A DNA stretch of 64,000 nt from a virus (IMGVR_UViG_3300002988_000032:12793-76792), one strand, 5' to 3'. Counted from the stretch's first letter, positions 8,633 through 25,944 are shown. Program-made: numbers and translations. Notes: a model not told the origin generated them from the sequence alone.

Positions 8633-10669
8633 TCAAAGGCCGGGGATCCGCCCCATCCTCGCCGCGACGGGGGCGAAGGGCTGAATTTTCAACGGGGGCG
8701 CGGCGGTCGGCACGACACGGACGCCCTGATCGTCATCGTCTCGCTCTTCCGACGGCTCATCTCGCGGCGGCGGCGGATGCAACCGCACCACCTGCATGAG
8801 TTCCGCCGCCGCCTCCTGCATCATTTCGCAGTCGAGATAGTGATTGGCGCCGGTTTCCTGCCAGTACGGCTTGCCGTTCTTGAGGATGCGAGTCTCCGAC
8901 GCGACCTGTTTCGCGTAGCTTTCATCCACATCCTCGGGCAGATGCCATCCGCCCAGGATTTCCTTCCGGCGGCTGATCCGCTCGTAGACCTGCGTCTTGA
9001 AGTAATCGGTGTTGAGGCGGTGCAGAATCAAACCGCCGTATTTCCTCGGCTTTCCCCGGTAATCCACGTCGCCGTCTTGAGACGCCAAGCGGCGCCCCCC
9101 GGCCAAGGTCGGTTCGCCTTTGATCGGTTGGGCGAACATCTTGTTGAAGCGGCGACAGAAGTCGTAAACGATGTTTTCCGGGAGCACCGACGGGCGTCCG
9201 GGCCGATAGCCGGAGTCGATCAACAGGCGATTGACGGTCATCCCGCCGGGAAGGCTTCCCCGGACGATCTCCTCCAGATTATCCCACACCTCGATCTGGT
9301 CGGTGTCGCCGGCGACATAACCATAATCGATCAACCAAGACTCGCGGCGCGCGCCCCAGCCCCGCATGACCCAATAGACGCCGCGCTTCTGAACGTCCGC
9401 CGTGACCGCGATGCGCTGAACGCCGTATGGGATCTGTCCGCGCTTGTAGGGCAGTTTACATTCCGCCACGTCGGCGTGTTTCGGGGCGTCCGCGGCCGGG
9501 GCGTAAAGTTCGCCGTATCCGGTGTTGAAGACGACCTTCACTTCCTTGGGGTCGCCGGACTGATGCGCCTCGACGTCGTCCTTCGCCCTGTCTCCCCACG
9601 ACACGAACGGGGACGCGAGGCCCGACACCCAAAACGACACCGTTTCTCCCGCCGGGATGTCGCCGACCAACTCGCCGGTCCAGGGAACAATCCTTTGACC
9701 GGGGGCGACGAACACGCCGCGTTCGTTCATCCACGCCTTATGTTCGCCGTCCTCGATGTCGCATCCGCATTTCGGGCAGGAGATATGCGCCGTCGCCTTG
9801 GCCCGCATCGGGTCGGCGGTCGCGATATCGTCCTTGCCGTCGTACTTCAGAATCGATCGGCGCGGGATGAAGAACTCGCCGCAATGCGGGCACGGCCACG
9901 CCCATTCGTGCCGCGTCCCCTGTTGCCACATGCGCCACGTCGGCGACGCCAGTTTCTTCGGATCGGCGTGAACCCACCGCTCCAGCCCCGTGTCGGGGTC
10001 GTACTCGGAGAACACCCGTCCCTCCAACGGGGTGCAGATGATGCCGGCCTTCCCGTTCGGATAGGTGAACAACCGAGCGCGCGCGAGGCGAACCGGGTCG
10101 CCCTCGTCCGACACCTTGCCGGTCATCCGGTCGCGTTCATCCACGAGAAGGAGAGCGACGGAATCCGACGCCAGTTGCGACGACGACGCGGCGGAAATCA
10201 GCCGGAGTTTCGCGCCGTTCACCACCTTGCGGCGTTTTTTCTGCGCTTTGCCCCACACCGTTTTCCGCCGAAGAGACGGGGTTGAACGAAGCATCGACAC
10301 GATGTCGGGTTCGAGTTTGTCCTCCAAAAAGTCGCGGTCCGGGCCGACGTAGAAGATGGGGGCCGGGTCGTCGTCCAGGCGATGCCCGATGATCGCCATG
10401 AACGACAGGGTTTTCCCCATCTGGGAACCCATGACGGTCACGATCACCTTGTAGCGCGGGTCCGAGAAGGCCCGCATGATCGGCACGACATACGGGGTCC
10501 GCGTCGGGTCGTACCGACCGGGAACCGGACTGGTCGGCGGAAGGTCCATGCACTGGGCCGCCCATTGATCCGCCGTCCTGGCGGGAGGCGGTTGGATGAT
10601 GCCGGCGCAAAACCGAAGGAGGGCGGACCGGTTACTCGTCCTCGTCGCCATCGCCGGACTCGTCATCAC
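8633..10669 (-). CDS. Terminase large subunit, lambda gpA family
   Basis: GSQMGKT Walker A, LLLVDERDRM Walker B, EGDPVRLARAR, CPHCGE and CPKCG Zn motifs, NHYLDCE nuclease motif. Confidence 0.93.
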   Translation of the reverse strand: MMTSPAMATRTSNRSALLRFCAGIIQPPPARTADQWAAQCMDLPPTSPVPGRYDPTRTPYVVPIMRAFSDPRYKVIVTVMGSQMGKTLSFMAIIGHRLDDDPAPIFYVGPDRDFLEDKLEPDIVSMLRSTPSLRRKTVWGKAQKKRRKVVNGAKLRLISAASSSQLASDSVALLLVDERDRMTGKVSDEGDPVRLARARLFTYPNGKAGIICTPLEGRVFSEYDPDTGLERWVHADPKKLASPTWRMWQQGTRHEWAWPCPHCGEFFIPRRSILKYDGKDDIATADPMRAKATAHISCPKCGCDIEDGEHKAWMNERGVFVAPGQRIVPWTGELVGDIPAGETVSFWVSGLASPFVSWGDRAKDDVEAHQSGDPKEVKVVFNTGYGELYAPAADAPKHADVAECKLPYKRGQIPYGVQRIAVTADVQKRGVYWVMRGWGARRESWLIDYGYVAGDTDQIEVWDNLEEIVRGSLPGGMTVNRLLIDSGYRPGRPSVLPENIVYDFCRRFNKMFAQPIKGEPTLAGGRRLASQDGDVDYRGKPRKYGGLILHRLNTDYFKTQVYERISRRKEILGGWHLPEDVDESYAKQVASETRILKNGKPYWQETGANHYLDCEMMQEAAAELMQVVRLHPPPPRDEPSEERDDDDQGVRVVPTAAPPLKIQPFAPVAARMGRIPGL

Positions 10670-16845: not shown

Positions 16846-16891
16846 TTCGGGGGTCTCCTGTCGGCGCCACGGAACGGGCGATGAGGATTGG

Positions 16892-17125
16892 TCAGACAGC
16901 GCGTGCGGAGTTGATCCGGCGCCAGTTTCGCGCGTCGCACTCGGCGACGATGTGCGGGGTGCCGATCGACGCCGCCGCGGCCCGCATCATTTTCCGGGCG
17001 GTCGCACCCGGATTCCGGCACGCCAGTGTCGCATGGGTGCTGGTGGGGTAGGCGTACCCCGTGCGCCCGGTTGCCGTGTCGCCGGCTGTGAACCCGCCGT
17101 CGTCGTCCATAAGCCAAACGACCAT
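16892..17125 (-). CDS. Hypothetical protein (77 aa)
   Basis: MVVWLMDDDGGFTAGD...YAYPTSTHA; first gene of a leftward mini-operon. Confidence 0.55.
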   Translation of the reverse strand: MVVWLMDDDGGFTAGDTATGRTGYAYPTSTHATLACRNPGATARKMMRAAAASIGTPHIVAECDARNWRRINSARAV

Positions 17126-17244
17126 TTTTGATCCCCATGTTGGCGCCTGGTGGCGCGTTGTGCATGGGTTATGTATGCCATGATGTATGGCACTGCGCAA
17201 GGGGGAAATTCACTGTCCATATCAAAAATGTATGTCATAATGCG

Positions 17245-17273
17245 TTGACAATCCCACAAAAACGCCATACATA
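17245..17273 (+). promoter_or_regulatory. Sigma70-type promoter
   Basis: TTGACA-N17-TACATA upstream of ORF 17300, embedded in CATACAT repeats. Confidence 0.5.
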
Positions 17274-17299
17274 TAGGCCATACAAGTTGGAGAGGCGAA

Positions 17300-17515
17300 A
17301 TGTATGGAATGTCGCGAATTGAAGCCGAATCGTTCGCGATCGCCCTGCGCGACCGCGTCGGTAGCACTCACGACGAGGATCCGGGGAAGATGATCGTCGG
17401 ATATGTCGTCTCCCCATATCCGGGGACGCGCCTTTTTGGCGTCGTCGAAAGGTGGGTCTATGCCGGGAATCCTGAGATGGGCGAATTTGGTGGTGGATTC
17501 GCCTGGAAAGACTGA
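17300..17515 (+). CDS. Hypothetical protein (71 aa)
   Basis: GGAGAGG RBS, downstream of the promoter. Confidence 0.55.
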   Translation: MYGMSRIEAESFAIALRDRVGSTHDEDPGKMIVGYVVSPYPGTRLFGVVERWVYAGNPEMGEFGGGFAWKD

Positions 17516-17554
17516 CGGCCTTGTCTGCCATACGAAAATGCCATACCATGAGGC

Positions 17555-17881
17555 ATGATCATGAGCTTGACCGAGATAGAGGCGCGCGCCCGCGATGCGG
17601 GCTTACCGCCTCCCGTAATCGTCGGAGACCGATTCGTCATTGTCGGCGAATTTCGGCATGACCCGCCCGACGCGCGCGGCCCCGATCCGCGGCGCCATGT
17701 GATGACGCCCGATGATTTTAAAACATGGGCCGAATCCGCCGGCGGGTGGCAGGCGGCGGCCGACTATCTCAATGGTCGGCTCGGGACGCGCTATACGCGC
17801 GCGGATGTATGGCGCTGGGGTAGCGGCGACAAATCCTCGCGCCCGGTCCCGACGAAAATAGCGCGCTTGCTCGGAGAATAA
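17555..17881 (+). CDS. HTH-containing protein (108 aa)
   Basis: C-terminal half MTPDDFKTW...AADYLNGRLGTRYTRADVWRWGSG is an HTH pattern; true start could be the internal MTPDDF. Confidence 0.55.
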   Translation: MIMSLTEIEARARDAGLPPPVIVGDRFVIVGEFRHDPPDARGPDPRRHVMTPDDFKTWAESAGGWQAAADYLNGRLGTRYTRADVWRWGSGDKSSRPVPTKIARLLGE

Positions 17882-17905
17882 TTATATGATGTATGGCGTT
17901 TTCCG

Positions 17906-17934
17906 TTGACGCCAGACGCCATACGACATACATT
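17906..17934 (+). promoter_or_regulatory. Sigma70-type promoter
   Basis: TTGACG-N17-TACATT with CATAC motifs. Confidence 0.55.
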
Positions 17935-17988
17935 ATCTCCATACACAGAGCGGCGAACGCCGCCGCCAAGCCAACCAGGAGACAGTCA

Positions 17989-18240
17989 ATGACGCCGGAA
18001 CGCGAAGCCGAACTGTTCGCCAAGCTCGACCTGATGCTCGAGCTGCATCGGAGGACGGAAGCCGATATCCGAGAGATGCGAGCGGACATTCGCGAAATGC
18101 GAGCCGACGTCGGCGGCATGCGGGCGGAGGCGGCGGAGACGAATAGCCGCCTCTCGAGAGTCGAAGGCCGGATCGAGGAACAGTCCAAATTCTTGCAACT
18201 CACTCTCGCGAGCCGGCAGAGCCGCAAGCCCGCCGCGTGA
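17989..18240 (+). CDS. Small coiled-coil protein (83 aa)
   Basis: ADIREMR-ADIREMR-ADVGGMR heptad repeat; AGGAGA RBS. Confidence 0.65.
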   Translation: MTPEREAELFAKLDLMLELHRRTEADIREMRADIREMRADVGGMRAEAAETNSRLSRVEGRIEEQSKFLQLTLASRQSRKPAA

Positions 18241-18284
18241 CCGGCTTTGCGTCACCCCCCACCGGAGTTTTTTGAGATCGACGT

Positions 18285-18344
18285 GACCCGCTTCAACAAT
18301 CGCCCGTTCCCGTGGGAGTGGGCGACTTTGAAACGAGACACCCC
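18285..18344 (+). repeat. 60-bp hairpin repeat, copy A
   Basis: 58/60 identical to 19005-19064; long imperfect palindrome ending TTTGAAAC. Confidence 0.95.
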
Positions 18345-18413
18345 ACACAAGGGTTTTTTGAAACAGCGCGGCGGGCCGCGGGAGCGGCGACCGGCGTCAA
18401 TAGGGGGTATGAA

Positions 18414-18902
18414 ATGAAATTCCGACTGCACAATGAACAGAGGTCGTCGCCGCTCGAGTATGAATTTCACGCGAGTTGTCAGGACGAACTAGCTGCTGGC
18501 CTCTATAGGGCGTGGATCTCAATTTACTCACAAGAAAAGAATCTCCTAAAATCTGATGAGTGGCTCTTGGCGCACAAAGCTAGGACAGTGGAGTTTTCTG
18601 GGCGGGATCAGCAACTGTACGTCGCTGAAAGGCAGCGTGAATATGCAAGAATTAGAGCGTTTCAGACAGCTAGATATTTTCTTCACGTTGGTTTGTCGGA
18701 AAGCCATCCGTTGGCGCCATGGACTCACGCTGTTGAATACTACGACGTTAGCGGCTTCCGCCATAATCTTATCGTCAACGGCGCCCCAAATGAGCAAATT
18801 TGCGCCCAAAAAAGCAAATCGTTCTTTCAAATTGAGGCGGCGGTCGATGCGCTGGAGATGTGGACCGGGTTTTCCGCCGCCCTTCTCGGCCCCAAGATAT
18901 AA
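18414..18902 (+). CDS. Hypothetical protein (162 aa, lower GC), flanked by direct repeats
   Basis: ATG 18414 after GGGGG RBS; no recognisable family. Confidence 0.6.
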   Translation: MKFRLHNEQRSSPLEYEFHASCQDELAAGLYRAWISIYSQEKNLLKSDEWLLAHKARTVEFSGRDQQLYVAERQREYARIRAFQTARYFLHVGLSESHPLAPWTHAVEYYDVSGFRHNLIVNGAPNEQICAQKSKSFFQIEAAVDALEMWTGFSAALLGPKI

Positions 18903-19004
18903 ACACCAACACAACATATAAAAGCGGGCGGGCCGACGCCCCGGCCCGTGCCGCACGGCACCCCCACCGGAGTTTTTTGAGAAACAGAGCGGACTTCCCC
19001 GCGC

Positions 19005-19064
19005 GACCCGCTTCAACAATCGCCCGTTCCCACGGGAGTGGGCGACTTTGAAACGAGACACCCC
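19005..19064 (+). repeat. 60-bp hairpin repeat, copy B
   Basis: Direct repeat of 18285-18344, exactly 720 bp downstream. Confidence 0.95.
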
Positions 19065-19149
19065 CCCCCGAAGGGTTTTTTGAACAGATCCCCGATTTTT
19101 GAACACCTGGCGCCGCGACGCGGCCGCCACAACACTCGGAGTCCGTCCG

Positions 19150-19722
19150 ATGCCGAACGCCGTGAAATTTTCAGATCTCGTCGCACTCTCGAAAGACGAG
19201 CGACGCGCCGTTCTCTCGTCCCTCTTCCCCTTCGGCGGTCTCATGACCGACGACAATTGTATCATGCACGACGCCGACCGAAACAAACTCATTCGGACCG
19301 CGATCAAGAACGCGGAGACGATTGGTTTGATCCCGGCGGGACTCCGCGTATCGGTGCGGTCGCCGCATTACGGTTCGGTGAAGGTCGAGGTCCGGGTGAC
19401 GAAGTTTCTCATATTGAACCCCGAGCATGTTCGTTACGGTAACGACAATCCCAGTCACACATATTACGACATGCCATGGGAAGCGAGGGAGCGCTTGACG
19501 CCCGCCGGCGAGGCCCTTATGAGCGCGCTCAAGGCTATCGCGTCCCAGTGGCGATATGATCGGTCCGACGCCATGTCGGATCACTTTGATACAAATTACT
19601 ATCTTGACGTTTCGTTCAATTACGAACTTGAACGCACGCAGCGCGCTTGGATCCTGTCCTTCCCGCGGTCGGTCCGCATCAGACCGAAAGTGACGGTTGG
19701 CGTTCAGTCCCGCGCCGCGTGA
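19150..19722 (+). CDS. LPD29-like (large polyvalent protein-associated domain) protein
   Basis: IRTAIK...RVSVRSPHYGSV and YDRSDAMSDHFDTNYYLDV patterns, recalled from memory. Confidence 0.5.
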   Translation: MPNAVKFSDLVALSKDERRAVLSSLFPFGGLMTDDNCIMHDADRNKLIRTAIKNAETIGLIPAGLRVSVRSPHYGSVKVEVRVTKFLILNPEHVRYGNDNPSHTYYDMPWEARERLTPAGEALMSALKAIASQWRYDRSDAMSDHFDTNYYLDVSFNYELERTQRAWILSFPRSVRIRPKVTVGVQSRAA

Positions 19723-19806
19723 CACCCCCCCACAGAGGTTTTTTGAAACGCCGCGCCCGCGCCGGTGATCGCCACCCCCACACCCGCAAGTCGGAAGATA
19801 CCCACC

Positions 19807-22800
19807 ATGTCCGTCACCATCGAATCCGCCGCGCTCAAGTCCGCTCTCGCCCGCGTCAAATGGGCGTGCGATCTCAAGTCGCGCATCCCCATCCTCGCAT
19901 GCGCTCGCATCGAGGCGCGTGGAGGGGAGGTCGTCATGACGACGACGGACATGGACGCGCTCGCGACGATCGTGGTTCCGGCGGACTCGTCGGAGGCGTG
20001 GACGGTCGCGGTCCCGTTCAAAGCTCTCGAAGCCGCGGCCAAGACAACAAAAGGATCGATCGAGCTTTCCACCGCGGCCGGCGGGTTGCTGATCCGCGCT
20101 GGCGCCGGACAATCGACCATCAAGGCTCTCGACCACTCCGATTTTCCGAGCTGCGTCAATCTCGGCGATCTCGGCGGATCGATCGTCATCCCCGCGTCGA
20201 CGCTCCGCGACATCTCCCGCAAGGTCGGATTCGCGATGTCGACGGACGACCGGCGCTATTACCTCCGCGGCATCCACATCCACCGCGACGAGACGGGATT
20301 CCACGCGGTCGCGACGGATGGTCACCGCATGGCGGTCATGGACGTCGCGGCGCGCTCCAGCGCCGGAACGTGGGATCCGGTGATCGTCGCTCACGGCTCG
20401 ATCAATGGATTGGGCAGGGCGCTCCCCGGAAGATACGCCGGAGATGTTGAAATCGAGCGGTTCGAACGGGGGGTCATCATCCGATTGCCGGACATGACAA
20501 TCGTATCCAAGGCGATCGACGGAACTTTCCCCGACTACAAACGCGTCGTCCCGTCTTTCCATCTTCGCCCGCCCGCTTCCGCCACGGTCGACCGCGCCGC
20601 GCTTCTGTCCGCTCTCTCCTCCGTCGGTTCCGCGGAACAGGCCGGATTCTACAGCGACGGTCGAGAACTGGTCATTCAAACCGACGACGCCGACGGCGGA
20701 GAGGCGGAGTCCGCCCTTCCCGCGGACTTTTCGGGCGATTTCCGGCGCTTCGGCGCGAACCGAAAGTATATGCTCGACGCCGCGACGGCGTTCGACGGAG
20801 ATAACGTCACCATCGCCCACGACGGGCCGGACTCCCCGATGGTGATCCGCGACGGCGACGCCGGATATTATCAAGTTCTCATGCCGTGCGGGCTTTTTGA
20901 AAAAATGCGCCCGCGCTCGAGCCTGGCGGACCCCGTCGTCGCGGACGCGCCCACCCCGGCGGAGGTTTTCGAAGTCGCGGAGGAAGCGCCGTCGGATCCG
21001 TCCACCGTCGAAATCATCGAAGCCGAAAGCGACGCGAGAGACACGCCCCCGGCGGAGGTTTTCGGAGAGCCGCGCCCCGCGGAAGCCGCGGGGGATGCGC
21101 CCGCGTCCGAAACGATCGAATGCGCCGTTCCCGACACCGACGATTCACCCCGCGACACGACCGGCGCTCGCGACGAAATCGCGGCCCGCTATGCCGCCGA
21201 ACTGGGGGCGAACGAGGTCAGCGACTTTCACCGCGCGTTCGCCGACGGGATTCTTCAACGGGACGCGGAATCCCTGATGTGGATTGTCAACGGCGTCAAC
21301 AAAGTCGCGCCGCGCCTCTTCCAGGCCGTGACCGGCTATCGGCTCCCTCGCGGGATCGCGGCGGGCCGAGCCGCGCTCGAGGCGTGGGGCGGACGCGCGG
21401 GCGTTCTTGTCGACATGGCGTGGAAAGAGGACTCCGCGGCGCTATGGCGAAGGGTCAAGTCCAGGAGAGTCGCGGCCGAGCGCATCATCATGGGCGAACG
21501 AACGGCGGCGGAGGTTGTCGACGACTTTATCGCCGACGGGTTCCGAGAACTCGTCTCCGCGACGACCGACGGCGGCCGGCGAGTTTTCCACTTGGTCAGG
21601 CCGACCGACGGCTTCCGGGTGAACCTGTCCGTTCATCGTGGAGCGGCCGTCTCCGCCTACGCCCGCGCGGTCATCGCCGCGATGGATCACGACGCCGCGA
21701 ACTCCGCCCCCCCGGCGGAGTTTTTGGAAGATCCCGCCCCGATCGACGACGCGTCTTCCGCCTCCGCCTTCGCCACGCTCGAACGCGCCGTCGTCGCGGA
21801 GTCAGACGAACCGCTCGGCCCGTTGGTCGTCGCCTATGAACAAGCGGTCGCGCGGGAGCGGGGGGAGGAGTGGAAAGCGCCGAAGCCGAGAGCGGAACGA
21901 AGCGCCGGGCGCGGCAAGCCTCCGGCGCGCGAACTTCCGGCGGACAAAAAAGCGGAAATGGTCGAAATCGTCGGCGTCGACTGGCGCGGAATTCCCGCGG
22001 CGATGATCGCCGTCGCGGAATACCTCGTCGCGCGCGATGCGCTGGAAGATTTCCCCTGGGCGATCTCCCACCACCTCTTCCGCCTCCCCAACGGACAAGT
22101 CCGCAACGCGTCCTCCGACGACACGGCGGAGTATCGCGCGGCGTTGGGGCGTGTCCGGGACGCCCTGGCCGCGTTCGAAGCCGCGGTCGGCTCTCCTCAC
22201 GCCCGTCTCGCTCTCGGATTGGAGGTGGACGCGAGAGACGCGGCCCCGGCGGAGGTTTTTGGAGACGCGGCGGGCACGCCGGAAGCGCCGTCCCCCGTCG
22301 AAATCGCCGAAGTGAAGGAGCGCGCGCGAGATGTTCCCCCGGCGGGGGAAGGCGAGAAGCTCGCACCGGCTCCGCGGTGGAGAGGGGGAAAGTTCCGCCT
22401 CCACGAAACACCGGCGGTGAGAATCGGAAAGCACGAATGGCGCGTTGCCGTCGTCATCGATCCGTATTTGGGGCGGACGCGATTTTCCGAATGGCGTCAC
22501 CTTGAATCCGTGGGCGAGTGGAATCATTACAGAGACTGGCCGTCGTATGATTTCAACGGACATCGCTCCGGTCTTCCGGCTTCCATCGGGAAAAAAGTTT
22601 ACGACAAGTTTGAAGCTGAAATCGACGCGGCGATGAATCGGAAATTCGATGAGGCGACCGCACGCACGATCCTTGACGACGCGCGCGCGTATTTTGAAAA
22701 ACGCACCGACCTCGCGACGGTCGCCGCGGAACTTGGGGTATCGCTTGAAGGCGCCGCCGCGGCGGTCGCGGGCGCCCCGCCGGAGGTTTTTGAAGCGCGC

Positions 22801-22866
22801 CATCTTTCGACCGCGCCGTTTTTCGCTTGCCCCATACATACGATGTATGTATCTTTCTCTTTGTGA
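19807..22866 (+). CDS. dnaN: DNA polymerase III beta clamp fused to a ~660-aa multi-module extension
   Basis: N-terminal ~360 aa has TTDMD, FAMSTDDRRYYLRGI, VATDGHRMA, IDGTFPDYKRVVP, VLMP clamp motifs; frame stays open to 22866. Confidence 0.8.
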   Translation: MSVTIESAALKSALARVKWACDLKSRIPILACARIEARGGEVVMTTTDMDALATIVVPADSSEAWTVAVPFKALEAAAKTTKGSIELSTAAGGLLIRAGAGQSTIKALDHSDFPSCVNLGDLGGSIVIPASTLRDISRKVGFAMSTDDRRYYLRGIHIHRDETGFHAVATDGHRMAVMDVAARSSAGTWDPVIVAHGSINGLGRALPGRYAGDVEIERFERGVIIRLPDMTIVSKAIDGTFPDYKRVVPSFHLRPPASATVDRAALLSALSSVGSAEQAGFYSDGRELVIQTDDADGGEAESALPADFSGDFRRFGANRKYMLDAATAFDGDNVTIAHDGPDSPMVIRDGDAGYYQVLMPCGLFEKMRPRSSLADPVVADAPTPAEVFEVAEEAPSDPSTVEIIEAESDARDTPPAEVFGEPRPAEAAGDAPASETIECAVPDTDDSPRDTTGARDEIAARYAAELGANEVSDFHRAFADGILQRDAESLMWIVNGVNKVAPRLFQAVTGYRLPRGIAAGRAALEAWGGRAGVLVDMAWKEDSAALWRRVKSRRVAAERIIMGERTAAEVVDDFIADGFRELVSATTDGGRRVFHLVRPTDGFRVNLSVHRGAAVSAYARAVIAAMDHDAANSAPPAEFLEDPAPIDDASSASAFATLERAVVAESDEPLGPLVVAYEQAVARERGEEWKAPKPRAERSAGRGKPPARELPADKKAEMVEIVGVDWRGIPAAMIAVAEYLVARDALEDFPWAISHHLFRLPNGQVRNASSDDTAEYRAALGRVRDALAAFEAAVGSPHARLALGLEVDARDAAPAEVFGDAAGTPEAPSPVEIAEVKERARDVPPAGEGEKLAPAPRWRGGKFRLHETPAVRIGKHEWRVAVVIDPYLGRTRFSEWRHLESVGEWNHYRDWPSYDFNGHRSGLPASIGKKVYDKFEAEIDAAMNRKFDEATARTILDDARAYFEKRTDLATVAAELGVSLEGAAAAVAGAPPEVFEARHLSTAPFFACPIHTMYVSFSL
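22827..22855 (+). promoter_or_regulatory. Sigma70-type promoter with palindromic operator
   Basis: TTGCCC-N17-TATCTT; IR ATACATAC-gat-GTATGTAT (22834-22852). Confidence 0.7.
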
Positions 22867-22910
22867 GGCGGACGGATCGACCGATCGCCCCGAACCGGGA
22901 GACCGAAGAA

Positions 22911-23411
22911 ATGGGCACCGAAATGGGTTTGGACAAAGCCGCGCATCTGCGCGCCCGTAAAATTCTGGATTTTACGCCGGACCGCGCTCCATCAGTCAAA
23001 GCCGCATGCGCGTGCGCCCGGACGGCGCTCCGCTTTGTGCCGGAAGGCGAGGAGCGCCCGCGCCTCGCGATCGTGGCGGCGGAAGCGTGGGCCGAAAATC
23101 CGACGAGTGACGATCTACTTGATGCCGCCCTCGCCGCGTCCCATGCCGCTGGGGTGTTTGCGTGCGGTGTCCCCCAAGGCGTGGGCGAGGACGCCGCCGC
23201 CTACGCCGCCTACGCCACCAACTTGATAATGTTTGATCCGACGGAAGCCCCGACACTGACCATAAACGCGATCGTCGAAGCTCGCGCGCACGCTGCCGAC
23301 CTTGTGCGGCACGCCCATGACTCCGGAGTACGCGCAGCGTACGAGGCCCTTCGCTACGACACCAAGCGCGAAATGGACGAAATTGTCAGACGATACACCA
23401 TCAACGCGTGA
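22911..23411 (+). CDS. Hypothetical helical protein (166 aa)
   Basis: AACACARTALRFVPEGEERPRLAIVAAEAW, an Imm5-like helical pattern; GGGAGA RBS. Confidence 0.6.
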   Translation: MGTEMGLDKAAHLRARKILDFTPDRAPSVKAACACARTALRFVPEGEERPRLAIVAAEAWAENPTSDDLLDAALAASHAAGVFACGVPQGVGEDAAAYAAYATNLIMFDPTEAPTLTINAIVEARAHAADLVRHAHDSGVRAAYEALRYDTKREMDEIVRRYTINA

Positions 23412-23424
23412 GGGGAGGGCAAAA

Positions 23425-24006
23425 ATGACGATAAGCCTATACGTCGGACTGACGAACGGAAAATTTCGGGAGGAGCTGACGGTTGACGGTGGCCACATCG
23501 ACGCGACGCCGCTCGAGGGGGGCTGCCATCGCGGTGGCGAACTTGTCATTGCGCACTGGATCGGTCCGGGCAGAGTCAGCCGCTTATGGGTGCGGCCTGG
23601 ATACGAGGCTAGGGGACGCGTGCTCGCCGACCAGTTCGACGCCTATGCCAAAAGAGAGCAAGACGAGTGGATGAGCAATGATGACGATCGGGATCGCAGA
23701 AATTGGGCAAAGCGGAACGCTATCCCCGAAGATAATGTAAAGATTTATAACGTCTATTCCCGAAAGATCAAAAAATTTGTCAACCACTTAAAGATAGACG
23801 AAAAAGACGCCGAGTGGGACTGCGAACAGGTATTTGCGACGAGTGGCGCCGGCGCGATTTATATGTTCCGCGAAGAATATCGCCTATGGGAATGGGACTA
23901 CGAGGTGAAAGCCTTCGAAAAGATCACCACGCACCAAAAAGACCCCGACGACGGCTGGGAAGAGCGCTGGGAAGCCGCCGTGAAGGCCGATGGAGCGGCC
24001 ACATGA
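23425..24006 (+). CDS. Hypothetical acidic protein (193 aa)
   Basis: GGGGAGG RBS; Trp/Asp/Glu-rich; lower GC. Confidence 0.65.
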   Translation: MTISLYVGLTNGKFREELTVDGGHIDATPLEGGCHRGGELVIAHWIGPGRVSRLWVRPGYEARGRVLADQFDAYAKREQDEWMSNDDDRDRRNWAKRNAIPEDNVKIYNVYSRKIKKFVNHLKIDEKDAEWDCEQVFATSGAGAIYMFREEYRLWEWDYEVKAFEKITTHQKDPDDGWEERWEAAVKADGAAT

Positions 24007-24518
24007 TCCGTGTCTTTATCCGCGACGAGGCGGGATCCCTGTCCGACTACATCGCGACCGACGATCCGGTCGAGGCGGAGGCGCACTACCTTCGCCTTAT
24101 CCAGATCCGCACGGTCACCCCCACGACGGCGATCATCGATCCAGGTCGCCCGACCGGGGCGCTGCTCCCGGCGCGCTACCGCCTTGACAAGACTTGCTCA
24201 CCCCCGGAAAGGGAGCAGGAAATCGAAAGGGGGGCGGTCCAGTGGCTGCCGTCCGGATCCCCGACCGTCGCGATGGTGAGAGGCCTCGCTTTGAGGCTAC
24301 GCGAAGATCATGGGGCGACGCGCGACGCTCTCGCGGCGTCGGTCGGCTACACAAAGGCCGCATGGGACGCGTGGGCAATGCCGGAGGCGGCGAAGGGGCA
24401 CCGAAGGATCCCGTGGGGGATCTACACGCTCGCCCTCATCAGGTGGGGGCTTCACCCCGACCATGCCCTGCGTAGAGGATCCCGGTCAGCCGCTCCGCGC
24501 CGCGTCGGGCGAGGTTGA
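24003..24518 (+). CDS. Protein with C-terminal KorC/Aca1-like HTH (171 aa)
   Basis: PTVAMVRGL...GATRDALAASVGYTKAAWDAW...GHRRIPWGIYTLAL; ATGA overlap with the upstream gene. Confidence 0.55.
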   Translation: MIRVFIRDEAGSLSDYIATDDPVEAEAHYLRLIQIRTVTPTTAIIDPGRPTGALLPARYRLDKTCSPPEREQEIERGAVQWLPSGSPTVAMVRGLALRLREDHGATRDALAASVGYTKAAWDAWAMPEAAKGHRRIPWGIYTLALIRWGLHPDHALRRGSRSAAPRRVGRG

Positions 24519-24728
24519 CGACGGCGGTGTGTGACACCCCCAGCGTCCGGGCGATCTGGCGGGTCGGCACGCCCGCCGCCGTCCCGGTCATGGCCAGGCA
24601 CCAGGCCCGCGTCCGCGCCGCGTCGCCCCCCGGTGGAGGTTTTTGAAGCGGCGAACGACTCCGCTCGGACCGGACCAACCCAAACGACCGCCGCCGACCC
24701 CCGGAATGGGTTTTTGGAGAGCCGCCCC

Positions 24729-25559
24729 ATGAAACCGATGCTCGCCGCCCCGTTCGAAGGGCCGATCACCTATCCCCGTATCGCCGAACCGAAGGCCAAC
24801 GGCATCCGCGGAATGGTCCGCGTTGAAAACGGGCGCGTCGTCTCCGCCGTCTCCCGTGAAGGCCGCGACCTTCCGGCGCTCGCCGGCGCGGTCGTGAAAC
24901 TCGCGCGCTCCGCCGGCGGGCCGTGTTGGCTCGACATGGAACTCCTCGCCGACACGGGCTTCGCGGGGACGCTTTCAGCCGCGAGGGGGCAGACCCAAGC
25001 CCGGCTGGCGCTCCACCCGCTCGACCTCGTGCGCGACGGGGAGTCCAAGAATCTCGTCGACAGGTTGGCGGACGTGGATGCGGTCGTCGCGGCGTGCGGG
25101 GATCCCCGCGTCATCCGCCTGGAGAGGCGCGTCGTCCACAACGAGGCGGAGGCGAGGGAAGCCTATGCCGAGTACCGGGCGAAAGGTTGGGAAGGCGCGA
25201 TGCTGAAGTCCCCCCGCTCCCTCTACGAGCCGGGGAAGCGCGGGGACGCGTGGGTGAAGTTGAAGCCCGCCCTTGACATGGACTGCGAAATCGTCGACGC
25301 ATACGAGGGAAAGGGAAAACACGCCGGGTCGCTCGGCGGGTTCGTCGTCCGCACGCCGTTCGGCGTTTTATGCCGCGTCTTCCCCGGCAAGGACGTCTCC
25401 AACGCCGATCGCGCGCGCCTCTGGACGATACGCGGCTCACTACGCGGGACGACCTGCGAGGTGTCATACCAAGAGGTTCTGGCGTCCGGGCAACTCCGTC
25501 ATGGCCGCTTCGAGAGGGTCCGCACCGATCGGGGCGCGTTCGCCTATCGCGCCGCGTGA
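24729..25559 (+). CDS. Minimal ATP-dependent DNA ligase (276 aa)
   Basis: EPKANGIR (motif I), LDMEL (III), WEGAMLK (IV), WVKLK (V), OB fold ending LRHGRFERVRTD. Confidence 0.85.
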   Translation: MKPMLAAPFEGPITYPRIAEPKANGIRGMVRVENGRVVSAVSREGRDLPALAGAVVKLARSAGGPCWLDMELLADTGFAGTLSAARGQTQARLALHPLDLVRDGESKNLVDRLADVDAVVAACGDPRVIRLERRVVHNEAEAREAYAEYRAKGWEGAMLKSPRSLYEPGKRGDAWVKLKPALDMDCEIVDAYEGKGKHAGSLGGFVVRTPFGVLCRVFPGKDVSNADRARLWTIRGSLRGTTCEVSYQEVLASGQLRHGRFERVRTDRGAFAYRAA

Positions 25560-25944
25560 TCCCCCATCGCGGTTTTTTGGAGGCCCCCCGATCGCGGCTT
25601 TTCGGACTCCCGAATGGTTTTCGGACTCCCGAATGGCGTATCATCCGCGATTGTCGCGTCCCATGCGGGCGCGGATGACCCGTACCCACCGGCACCGGGT
25701 GGAAACAGCACGATGTCGCGCCCTTATGGGCGCGGATGATTCCGTTATGCTTCGGCGGGAGCAAACCAAAGAACATTGGATGTCACGCTTTGAATTTCCA
25801 TAACGTATCTTATTGGTCGAATTCATGTGTAGCCGCGAAGATGGGCCGTCAGGACGGGGTCGACGCGGCGCGGTGTTGGATCGCATCCATGCGGGAGGCG
25901 CGGCGCTTTGAGGCCGCGCCGCGAGATAATGAGGGAGAGGACCA

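Follow-up and report, generated by a model that had tools for sequence, protein, structure and literature searches.

Two nearly identical palindromes of 60 nt stand on either side of a single gene in a phage genome, and the question raised by this locus is what such a pair does there and how it came to enclose the gene. The window, i.e., the whole stretch of 64,000 nt that was analysed, comprises the bases 12793-76792 of a 78,487-bp IMG/VR virus record with a GC content of 0.646 and an estimated completeness of 84%. The original prediction compared the hairpins with CRISPR repeats and proposed that they are decoys of the RNA anti-CRISPR (Racr) type, processing sites of RNase III or Cas6, or cassette recombination sites. 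The reading preferred here, to which a probability of roughly 45% is given, is that an ORFan cassette entered a shared intergenic module by homologous recombination and that the palindromes are the joints of this insertion.

Sequence, copy number and folding of the palindromes

A direct repeat of 63 nt was found on the plus strand at 18282-18344 and 19002-19064, with an offset of 720 bp, in agreement with the pair of 60-nt repeats that had been described at this distance. It contains the following two palindromes:

18283 to 18342, plus strand: palindrome copy A, consisting of a 29-nt arm, a central GT and a 29-nt arm
19003 to 19062, plus strand: palindrome copy B, with the arms as in copy A, apart from the second base (T>C), and a central AC

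Over the 60 nt quoted in the original prediction, the copies indeed differ only at the centre, where the GT of one is the reverse complement of the AC of the other, and the T/C difference at 18284/19004 lies just outside of this quotation. Both copies are intergenic and in direct orientation, with one gene between them. There are exactly two of them in the whole 78,487-bp record, as determined by BLAST and by a covariance model with the filters off, and the 36-nt core pattern gave 2 matches versus 0 in 100 shuffles. The partial third copy reported at 16867-16882 dissolved into a chance exact match of 12 nt (BLAST E 0.2-0.6), which is no better than an unrelated 12-mer at 9141-9152 and to which the covariance model was blind at E<=10. 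The best account of the flipped centre is that the replicating strand switched template once at the hairpin, with two loop transitions as the other possible origin; template-switch loop inversions are a documented class of mutations (PMC8794818).

The arms of the palindrome match at 22 of 29 positions, the rest being five transitions, one transversion and one indel. The RNA of the plus strand folds into a core stem of 11 bp with two G-U pairs, a loop of 4 nt and outer pairs, 22 pairs in total, with the energies of -24.4 and -22.5 kcal/mol (z about -2.6); thus, of the plus-strand stem originally described, the two G-U pairs were confirmed, and the length of about 19 bp gave way to the 11-bp core plus outer pairs. 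The minus strand folds better than the plus strand (-35.6 and -34.3 kcal/mol; z -4.5 and -3.2). Three of the arm mismatches favour G-U pairing on the minus strand and two on the plus strand, and the wobble positions of the core favour the plus strand, while those of the outer stem favour the minus strand; because the wobbles are split in this way, neither strand is singled out. The identity between the copies reaches the unpaired bases and the mismatches, which fits a recent copying and fits equally a small mobile palindrome. Neither in the palindrome nor in the 80-nt unit described below is there a U-tract directly 3' of the stem-loop, and a terminator scan makes no call.

The gene string and a possible role in RNA

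The repeats sit in a rightward string of small genes, 5' of a replication block that encodes a 1033-aa DnaN fusion, an ATP-dependent ligase, an SSB and a helicase. Residues 14-374 of the 1033-aa ORF (19765-22866 of the window) make up a DnaN sliding clamp with all three of its domains, and beyond residue 374 there are about 660 aa of modules joined by PPAEVF linkers. The genes next to the repeats and the promoters upstream of them are as follows:

about 17246: sigma-70-like promoter (TTGACA, 17 nt, TACATA) with operator-like repeats
17906 to 17934, plus strand: sigma-70-like promoter (TTGACG, 17 nt, TACATT) with GCCATAC operator-like repeats
17989 to 18240, plus strand: P0006, the upstream gene, encoding an 83-aa coiled coil
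18414 to 18902, plus strand: P0005, the enclosed gene, encoding 162 aa, with a GGGGG ribosome-binding site 7 nt upstream
19150 to 19722, plus strand: P0007, encoding 190 aa, with a weak match to the polyvalent-protein domain (phrog_1926), otherwise an orphan

The promoter at 17906-17934 is the likely start of a rightward transcript that would carry both palindromes. The words ATGTATGGC/GCCATAC are repeated at 17140-17300 and 17880-17940, overlapping both sigma-70-like promoters, and are probably the operators of a phage repressor. Besides, there is a promoter-like site (TTGAGA, 17 nt, AACAAT) at copy A only; the spacing at copy B is 32 nt.

With both copies lying between genes of one co-oriented string downstream of the promoter at 17906, the palindromes might act mainly as RNA, as intercistronic hairpins, RNase III-type processing sites or 5'/3' stability elements, which would make P0005 a separate message within the rightward early transcript. 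Long irregular intergenic hairpins serve as RNase III sites in the early RNA of T7, and the plus-strand folds given above, with two G-U pairs in the 11-bp core, speak for such a role. However, the minus strand folds better, and the mismatches, three versus two, select no strand; the two copies are too nearly identical for covariation to be assessed, and the other intergenic regions of the same operon carry no hairpin. As the main explanation, both the action as RNA and the setting apart of P0005 are considered unlikely, although with some weight left to them. A role in processing or stability is compatible with the recombination joints preferred here, as the function of the module in place.

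Likeness to CRISPR repeats

The repeats were first likened to CRISPR repeats by their 3' end, where the stem is followed by TTTGAAAC, resembling the ATTGAAAC in which type I/III CRISPR repeats end. Together with the intergenic position in a phage, it led to the proposal that they are Racrs or solitary CRISPR-repeat mimics. However, TTTGAAAC, taken as the handle, pairs with the upstream CTTCAAC of the 5' arm in the folds of both strands, and the conserved unit has a length of 60-63 nt. No match to a CRISPR-DR family of Rfam was found at E<=10: for the region 18100-19200, this threshold returned two sub-threshold unrelated matches only, and the whole window gave no match at the gathering score. 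The 18-nt 3' half had 11 scattered single matches in 185,579 GTDB species genomes, with random flanks and no array. By exact scan, the stem core was absent from the viral contigs of IMG/VR and from 241 million JGI metagenome records, and both half-sites of the palindrome were absent from IMG/VR. Four words of the repeat, of 11-13 nt, do not occur in the part of the text of the Racr paper's supplements that was accessible. According to the SRUFinder rule, which draws on a set of 17,823 repeats, a solitary repeat unit has to match a known CRISPR repeat with an identity and a coverage of 90% or more (PMC10651486); the likeness was judged here by Rfam and by exact words, the latter of which can miss 1-3 mismatches. 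By these two measures, the alignment check that had been suggested revealed no similarity to CRISPR repeats. With no CRISPR-DR match, no array, a long block and a paired handle, the decoy proposal was not sustained and can be given hardly any probability, and the finding does not bear on CRISPR evasion.

A duplication built from blocks

The duplication is broader than the hairpin and is built from blocks, namely, a motif identical at 22 of 22 positions, then unalignable spacers, and then a unit of 80 nt, which consists of the palindrome and a second junction motif and is 92.5% identical between the copies. The spacers between the upstream motif and the 80-nt unit have the lengths of 7 nt (A) and 22 nt (B). 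The junction motifs at the two copies are the following:

18256 to 18277, plus strand: upstream junction motif A, composed of C-run, GGAG, T6 and GAGA; palindrome A lies 7 nt further on
18340 to 18365, plus strand: downstream junction motif A, composed of ACCCC..GGG, T6 and GAAAC; it directly adjoins palindrome A and is part of the 80-nt unit
18961 to 18982, plus strand: upstream junction motif B, the same as A at 22/22 positions; palindrome B lies 22 nt further on
19060 to 19085, plus strand: downstream junction motif B, abutting palindrome B

The upstream junction motif A starts 16 nt past the stop of the preceding gene. In its general form (C-run/GGAG(G)/T-run/GAA), the junction motif has 14 plus-strand copies in the window, all within 18268-25618, and elsewhere in the window there is one weak minus-strand look-alike at about 30543. 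It is found 3' of the ...GCCGCGTGA stops at 18240, 19722 and about 25557, and others of its copies are read in frame as the PPAEVFE linkers inside the DnaN fusion, i.e., the motif marks the borders of genes and domains, and it does so in this island only. No match to its exact degenerate pattern was found in IMG/VR. The motif has no stable hairpin, and its T-run copies were rejected as intrinsic terminators on account of their weak stems (-4 to -7.6 kcal/mol); the T6 runs near the palindromes are likewise preceded only by weak 4-bp stems (-7 kcal/mol). A sequence that joins protein domains in frame as well as genes is a more unusual feature than the palindromes themselves.

This in-frame reading raises the question of whether the blocks are, or recently were, coding, since frame 1 would give the linker PPPEFFE, similar to PPAEVFE in the DnaN fusion. 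No stop interrupts frame 1 in either copy (18241-18417 and 18922-19083), its GC3 of 0.70-0.80 is the highest, and the DnaN fusion contains the junction motif as an in-frame sequence. Against this, copy B has no start codon, its frame differs from that of P0005, the rest of the genome encodes no homologue of the frame-1 peptide apart from the motif, and short open frames are common at 65% GC, so that a coding origin is barely credible. In copy A, frame 1 is the frame of P0006 continued past its TGA, and in this frame the change of the loop amounts to one synonymous change and one W to R replacement.

A plain tandem or target-site duplication was rejected, since it would have copied the spacers too, yet the spacers beside the repeats differ. 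The sharp borders of the identity block at the palindrome ends, with identical unpaired positions, and the junction motif that directly adjoins each copy on the same side, might be expected of a small non-autonomous mobile element (REP- or MITE-like) that was inserted twice beside the motif, P0005 being incidental. Such an element is clearly unlikely, however, for the 78 kb hold no more than two copies, and no further copy was found in IMG/VR, in the JGI metagenome contigs or in the two relatives by terminase described below; the record has no transposase of the Y1, serine or tyrosine class, and a clean target duplication is not seen.

The enclosed gene

As had been predicted, the repeats bracket one ORF of lower GC content, P0005 (18414-18902), with 0.499 versus 0.646 for the genome; its GC3 is 0.54 versus 0.71-0.77 in the neighbours. 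Neither Pfam nor PHROGs gave a match to P0005, even at E 10, and no homologue was found by a word-based search of 5.8 billion proteins. An exhaustive HMMER search of 1.84 billion representative proteins gave one marginal match and no credible homologue; this sole match outside the window (E 4.6e-5, 24% identity, residues 62-115) is to a repeated winged-helix protein. The models of its structure are unreliable (Atlas pLDDT 0.39; AlphaFold2 pLDDT 42), and the HxH motif is absent. By its composition and searches, P0005 is a foreign-looking ORFan, most likely acquired horizontally.

The low-GC segment was also considered as a replication origin, and this was rejected because a single long ORF makes up the segment, preceded by a good ribosome-binding site, and internal repeats are lacking. 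Another hairpin lies inside of the presumed imported segment:

18924 to 18954, plus strand: strong hairpin, rich in GC, of -25 kcal/mol, 3' of the P0005 stop codon

As it is preceded by an A-rich run, this hairpin is like an intrinsic terminator on the minus strand only, and it may be a relic of the earlier context of the cassette.

The weak match of P0005 to a winged-helix repeat protein, together with the identity of the non-pairing positions, which is expected of a sequence-specific recognition, might suggest that the repeats are the DNA-binding sites of a phage regulator, possibly P0005 itself, flanking the gene. However, arms of 29 nt are far longer than the usual half-sites, the evident operators of this phage are a different repeat (GCCATAC at the promoters), and the fold of P0005 is unreliable, with a pLDDT of about 40; a regulator site is therefore regarded as quite improbable.

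Neighbouring genes, relatives and the phage lineage

The upstream gene P0006 has many homologues, most of which adjoin miaB in chromosomes that also carry a gene of the Ros/MucR family and that we take to be alphaproteobacterial. It is 66% identical to a small chromosomal protein encoded between an acyltransferase gene and miaB-phoH-ybeY-corC-lnt; more distant copies occur in Rhodospirillales MAGs, and there was no match at 1e-8 in a sample of 401 genomes of the class of one Magnetovibrio genome. Judged from these homologues, P0006 is a host-derived gene, and they suggest an alphaproteobacterial host of the phage.

The similarity of the relatives of this region stops at the stop codon of P0006 or just past it. 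Thus, a relative of about 92% identity, represented by the contigs of one sequencing run, is collinear with the window from 17145 to 18260, and in its last collinear contig the next 136 nt are unlike the window, the divergence beginning inside the first junction motif; the cover by the contigs of this run is patchy, and the lack of any cover over 18340-19041 carries no evidential weight. A Logan contig of 1.2 kb (L017; 270-1047) has in common with the window only P0006, from ATG to stop, at about 88% nucleotide identity. 3' of P0006 it carries a promoter (TTGACA, 17 nt, TATACA) with ATGGCATATAC repeats, which drives an 83-aa gene and a PIN-domain gene (vapBC-like), and the slot after P0006 is therefore variable. 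Taken together, the break at 18260 and the content of this contig indicate that the genes of the region are exchanged as single modules, with the joints at the gene borders.

No match was obtained by blastn of 17000-21000 against INPHARED. The large terminase (TerL) is of the lambda type, with at most 40% identity to any INPHARED phage; the nearest named relatives are those of VP882 and phiHAP-1 (39%), which are linear plasmid prophages. For P0007, the DnaN domain and TerL, no relatives were found in viral and metagenome contigs besides two IMG/VR records with TerL identities of 53-54%, and the module is absent from both of them. From these TerL identities it follows that the phage lineage is poorly sampled, and the setting is that of a high-GC lineage, probably of Alphaproteobacteria. 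The integrase of the phage may sit in the missing 16% of the record, or the phage may be non-integrating.

Site-specific recombination as a possible reading

Imperfect palindromes of 60 nt on both sides of one gene may be also the sites of a site-specific recombinase, either as an integron-like attC pair or as an inversion switch. The central dinucleotides GT and AC, being mutual reverse complements on identical arms in direct repeat, are the product to be expected if two perfect palindromes were cut with a 2-bp stagger and the segment between them inverted once. When an inversion between the centres was simulated, site 2 became a perfect palindrome and site 1 a perfect one bar one base, and the centres are compatible with inversion at sites of the serine-invertase (hix/gix) type. 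However, no match to the serine recombinase (PF00239) was found in the 78-kb record, complete to 84%, and the same record gave no match to the tyrosine recombinase (PF00589) or to the Y1 transposase (PF01797). In addition, all 14 junction motifs, including those inside of the segment, point the same way, so that the present orientation looks like the resting one. With regard to attC, the R''/R' boxes are matched at 5-6 of 7 positions only: on the plus strand, CTTCAAC agrees with RYYYAAC at 6/7 and the right end, TTTGAAA, lacks the conserved GTT, which is thus missing on the strand of the gene; on the minus strand, the agreement with RYYYAAC/GTTRRRY is 5/7 and 6/7.

Sites of a site-specific recombinase are therefore held to be improbable, and the narrower version, a recombinase-operated switch or cassette site whose enzyme is encoded in the missing 16% of the phage or in the host, very improbable; with the motifs co-oriented and the enzyme lacking, inversion is kept at the same very low level. 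If such a switch were real, the 720-bp segment with P0005 would be invertible or excisable. Among the proposals of the original prediction, cassette recombination sites with no recombinase came closest: the cassette and the lack of a recombinase agree with the present findings, and the agent of recombination would be general homologous recombination and not a site-specific enzyme.

Proposed recombination joints of an ORFan cassette

In the preferred explanation, i.e., the insertion of an ORFan cassette by homologous recombination, the two hairpins would be copies of a phage-private intergenic module composed of a junction motif, a spacer, the 60-nt imperfect palindrome and another junction motif. 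A recipient module would have lain between P0006 and P0007, and a donor module would have travelled with P0005. The donor DNA, consisting of P0005 and one module copy, would have then recombined with the resident module by ordinary homologous recombination, in a Campbell-type or unequal crossover inside the 60-nt palindrome, leaving flanking direct repeats that share the crossover block and have unlike sequences next to it. A later recombination between the repeats could delete P0005 or release it as a circle.

This explanation is favoured because the spacers are unalignable while the motif and the 80-nt unit match, and the pattern of blocks would fit an exchange between two unlike modules of a single family. 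Against it, there is no relative with the palindrome, and hence gain or loss at the repeats was never observed; the module is present in two copies only, compared with the usually many copies of the modules of the PeSL type (promoter-early stem-loop), and it is without a conserved promoter or a U-tract terminator. The anatomy and number of the copies, the foreign composition and orphan status of P0005, and the lack of CRISPR likeness and of a recombinase are direct results; the course of the recombination, and whatever the hairpin may do as RNA in the rightward transcript, are inferred. An acquired gene flanked by palindromes is in itself a fairly ordinary pattern in phages. If the explanation is true, the locus is one more case of orphan genes moved at conserved intergenic modules by general recombination, with modules whose parts differ from those of the promoter-terminator cassettes in T4-type phages.

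Comparison with known systems

The REP/RAYT and IS200/IS605 systems likewise have a gene for about 150-160 aa between similar one-strand imperfect hairpins, in a unit of about 700 bp. In contrast to them, P0005 has neither an HUH (HxH) motif nor a Y1_Tnp match, and the record is without Y1_Tnp. The early RNase III hairpins of T7, as generally known, are similarly irregular, of about 60 nt with internal loops, and are located between the genes of one transcript, whereas here only two intergenic regions carry a hairpin and the wobble pairs favour no strand. The clusters of integron attC sites, including those without an integrase, resemble the repeats by the imperfect palindromes of about 60 nt that bound a single-gene cassette with no integrase nearby. 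However, the RYYYAAC/GTTRRRY boxes are not matched in full here and GTT is absent on the strand of the gene, there is no tyrosine recombinase of the IntI type in the record, and only one cassette is present. The Racr units (Camara-Wilpert et al. 2023, PMC10651486) share with these repeats the short intergenic hairpin-forming structure in a phage, and the 3' end resembles the ...TTGAAAC of Racrs and solitary CRISPR repeats, but the unit here is of 60 nt and not of 28-37 nt, its tail is paired within the palindrome, and two copies flank a gene.

The closest likeness is to the PeSL cassettes of T4-type phages, whose conserved intergenic modules measure about 100 bp and include a stem-loop (PMC2839356; see also PMC4122927). 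PeSLs flank ORFans, and recombination deletes or circularises these without a dedicated recombinase (Arbiol et al. 2010, PMC2839356); PeSL crossovers were mapped in the stem-loop or near it, one of them within the loop (PMC2839356). In the same way, the modules described here are intergenic, of about 100 bp, with a stem-loop, and they enclose an ORFan within a variable region, P0005 being without a credible homologue and the relatives diverging at the gene borders, and again there is no dedicated recombinase in the record. Unlike PeSLs, which have a strong sigma-70-type promoter per module, there is none at copy B and a spacing-dependent one (9/12) at copy A; the stem-loop is stable, but without a directly following U-tract, and it is a 60-nt imperfect palindrome in two copies only, with an extra junction motif that is also read in frame inside a protein. 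The loss of genes between the copies is known for PeSLs, whereas here neither gain nor loss was seen at the repeats, the palindrome being absent from the relatives. By analogy, the module would thus work like a PeSL without being one.
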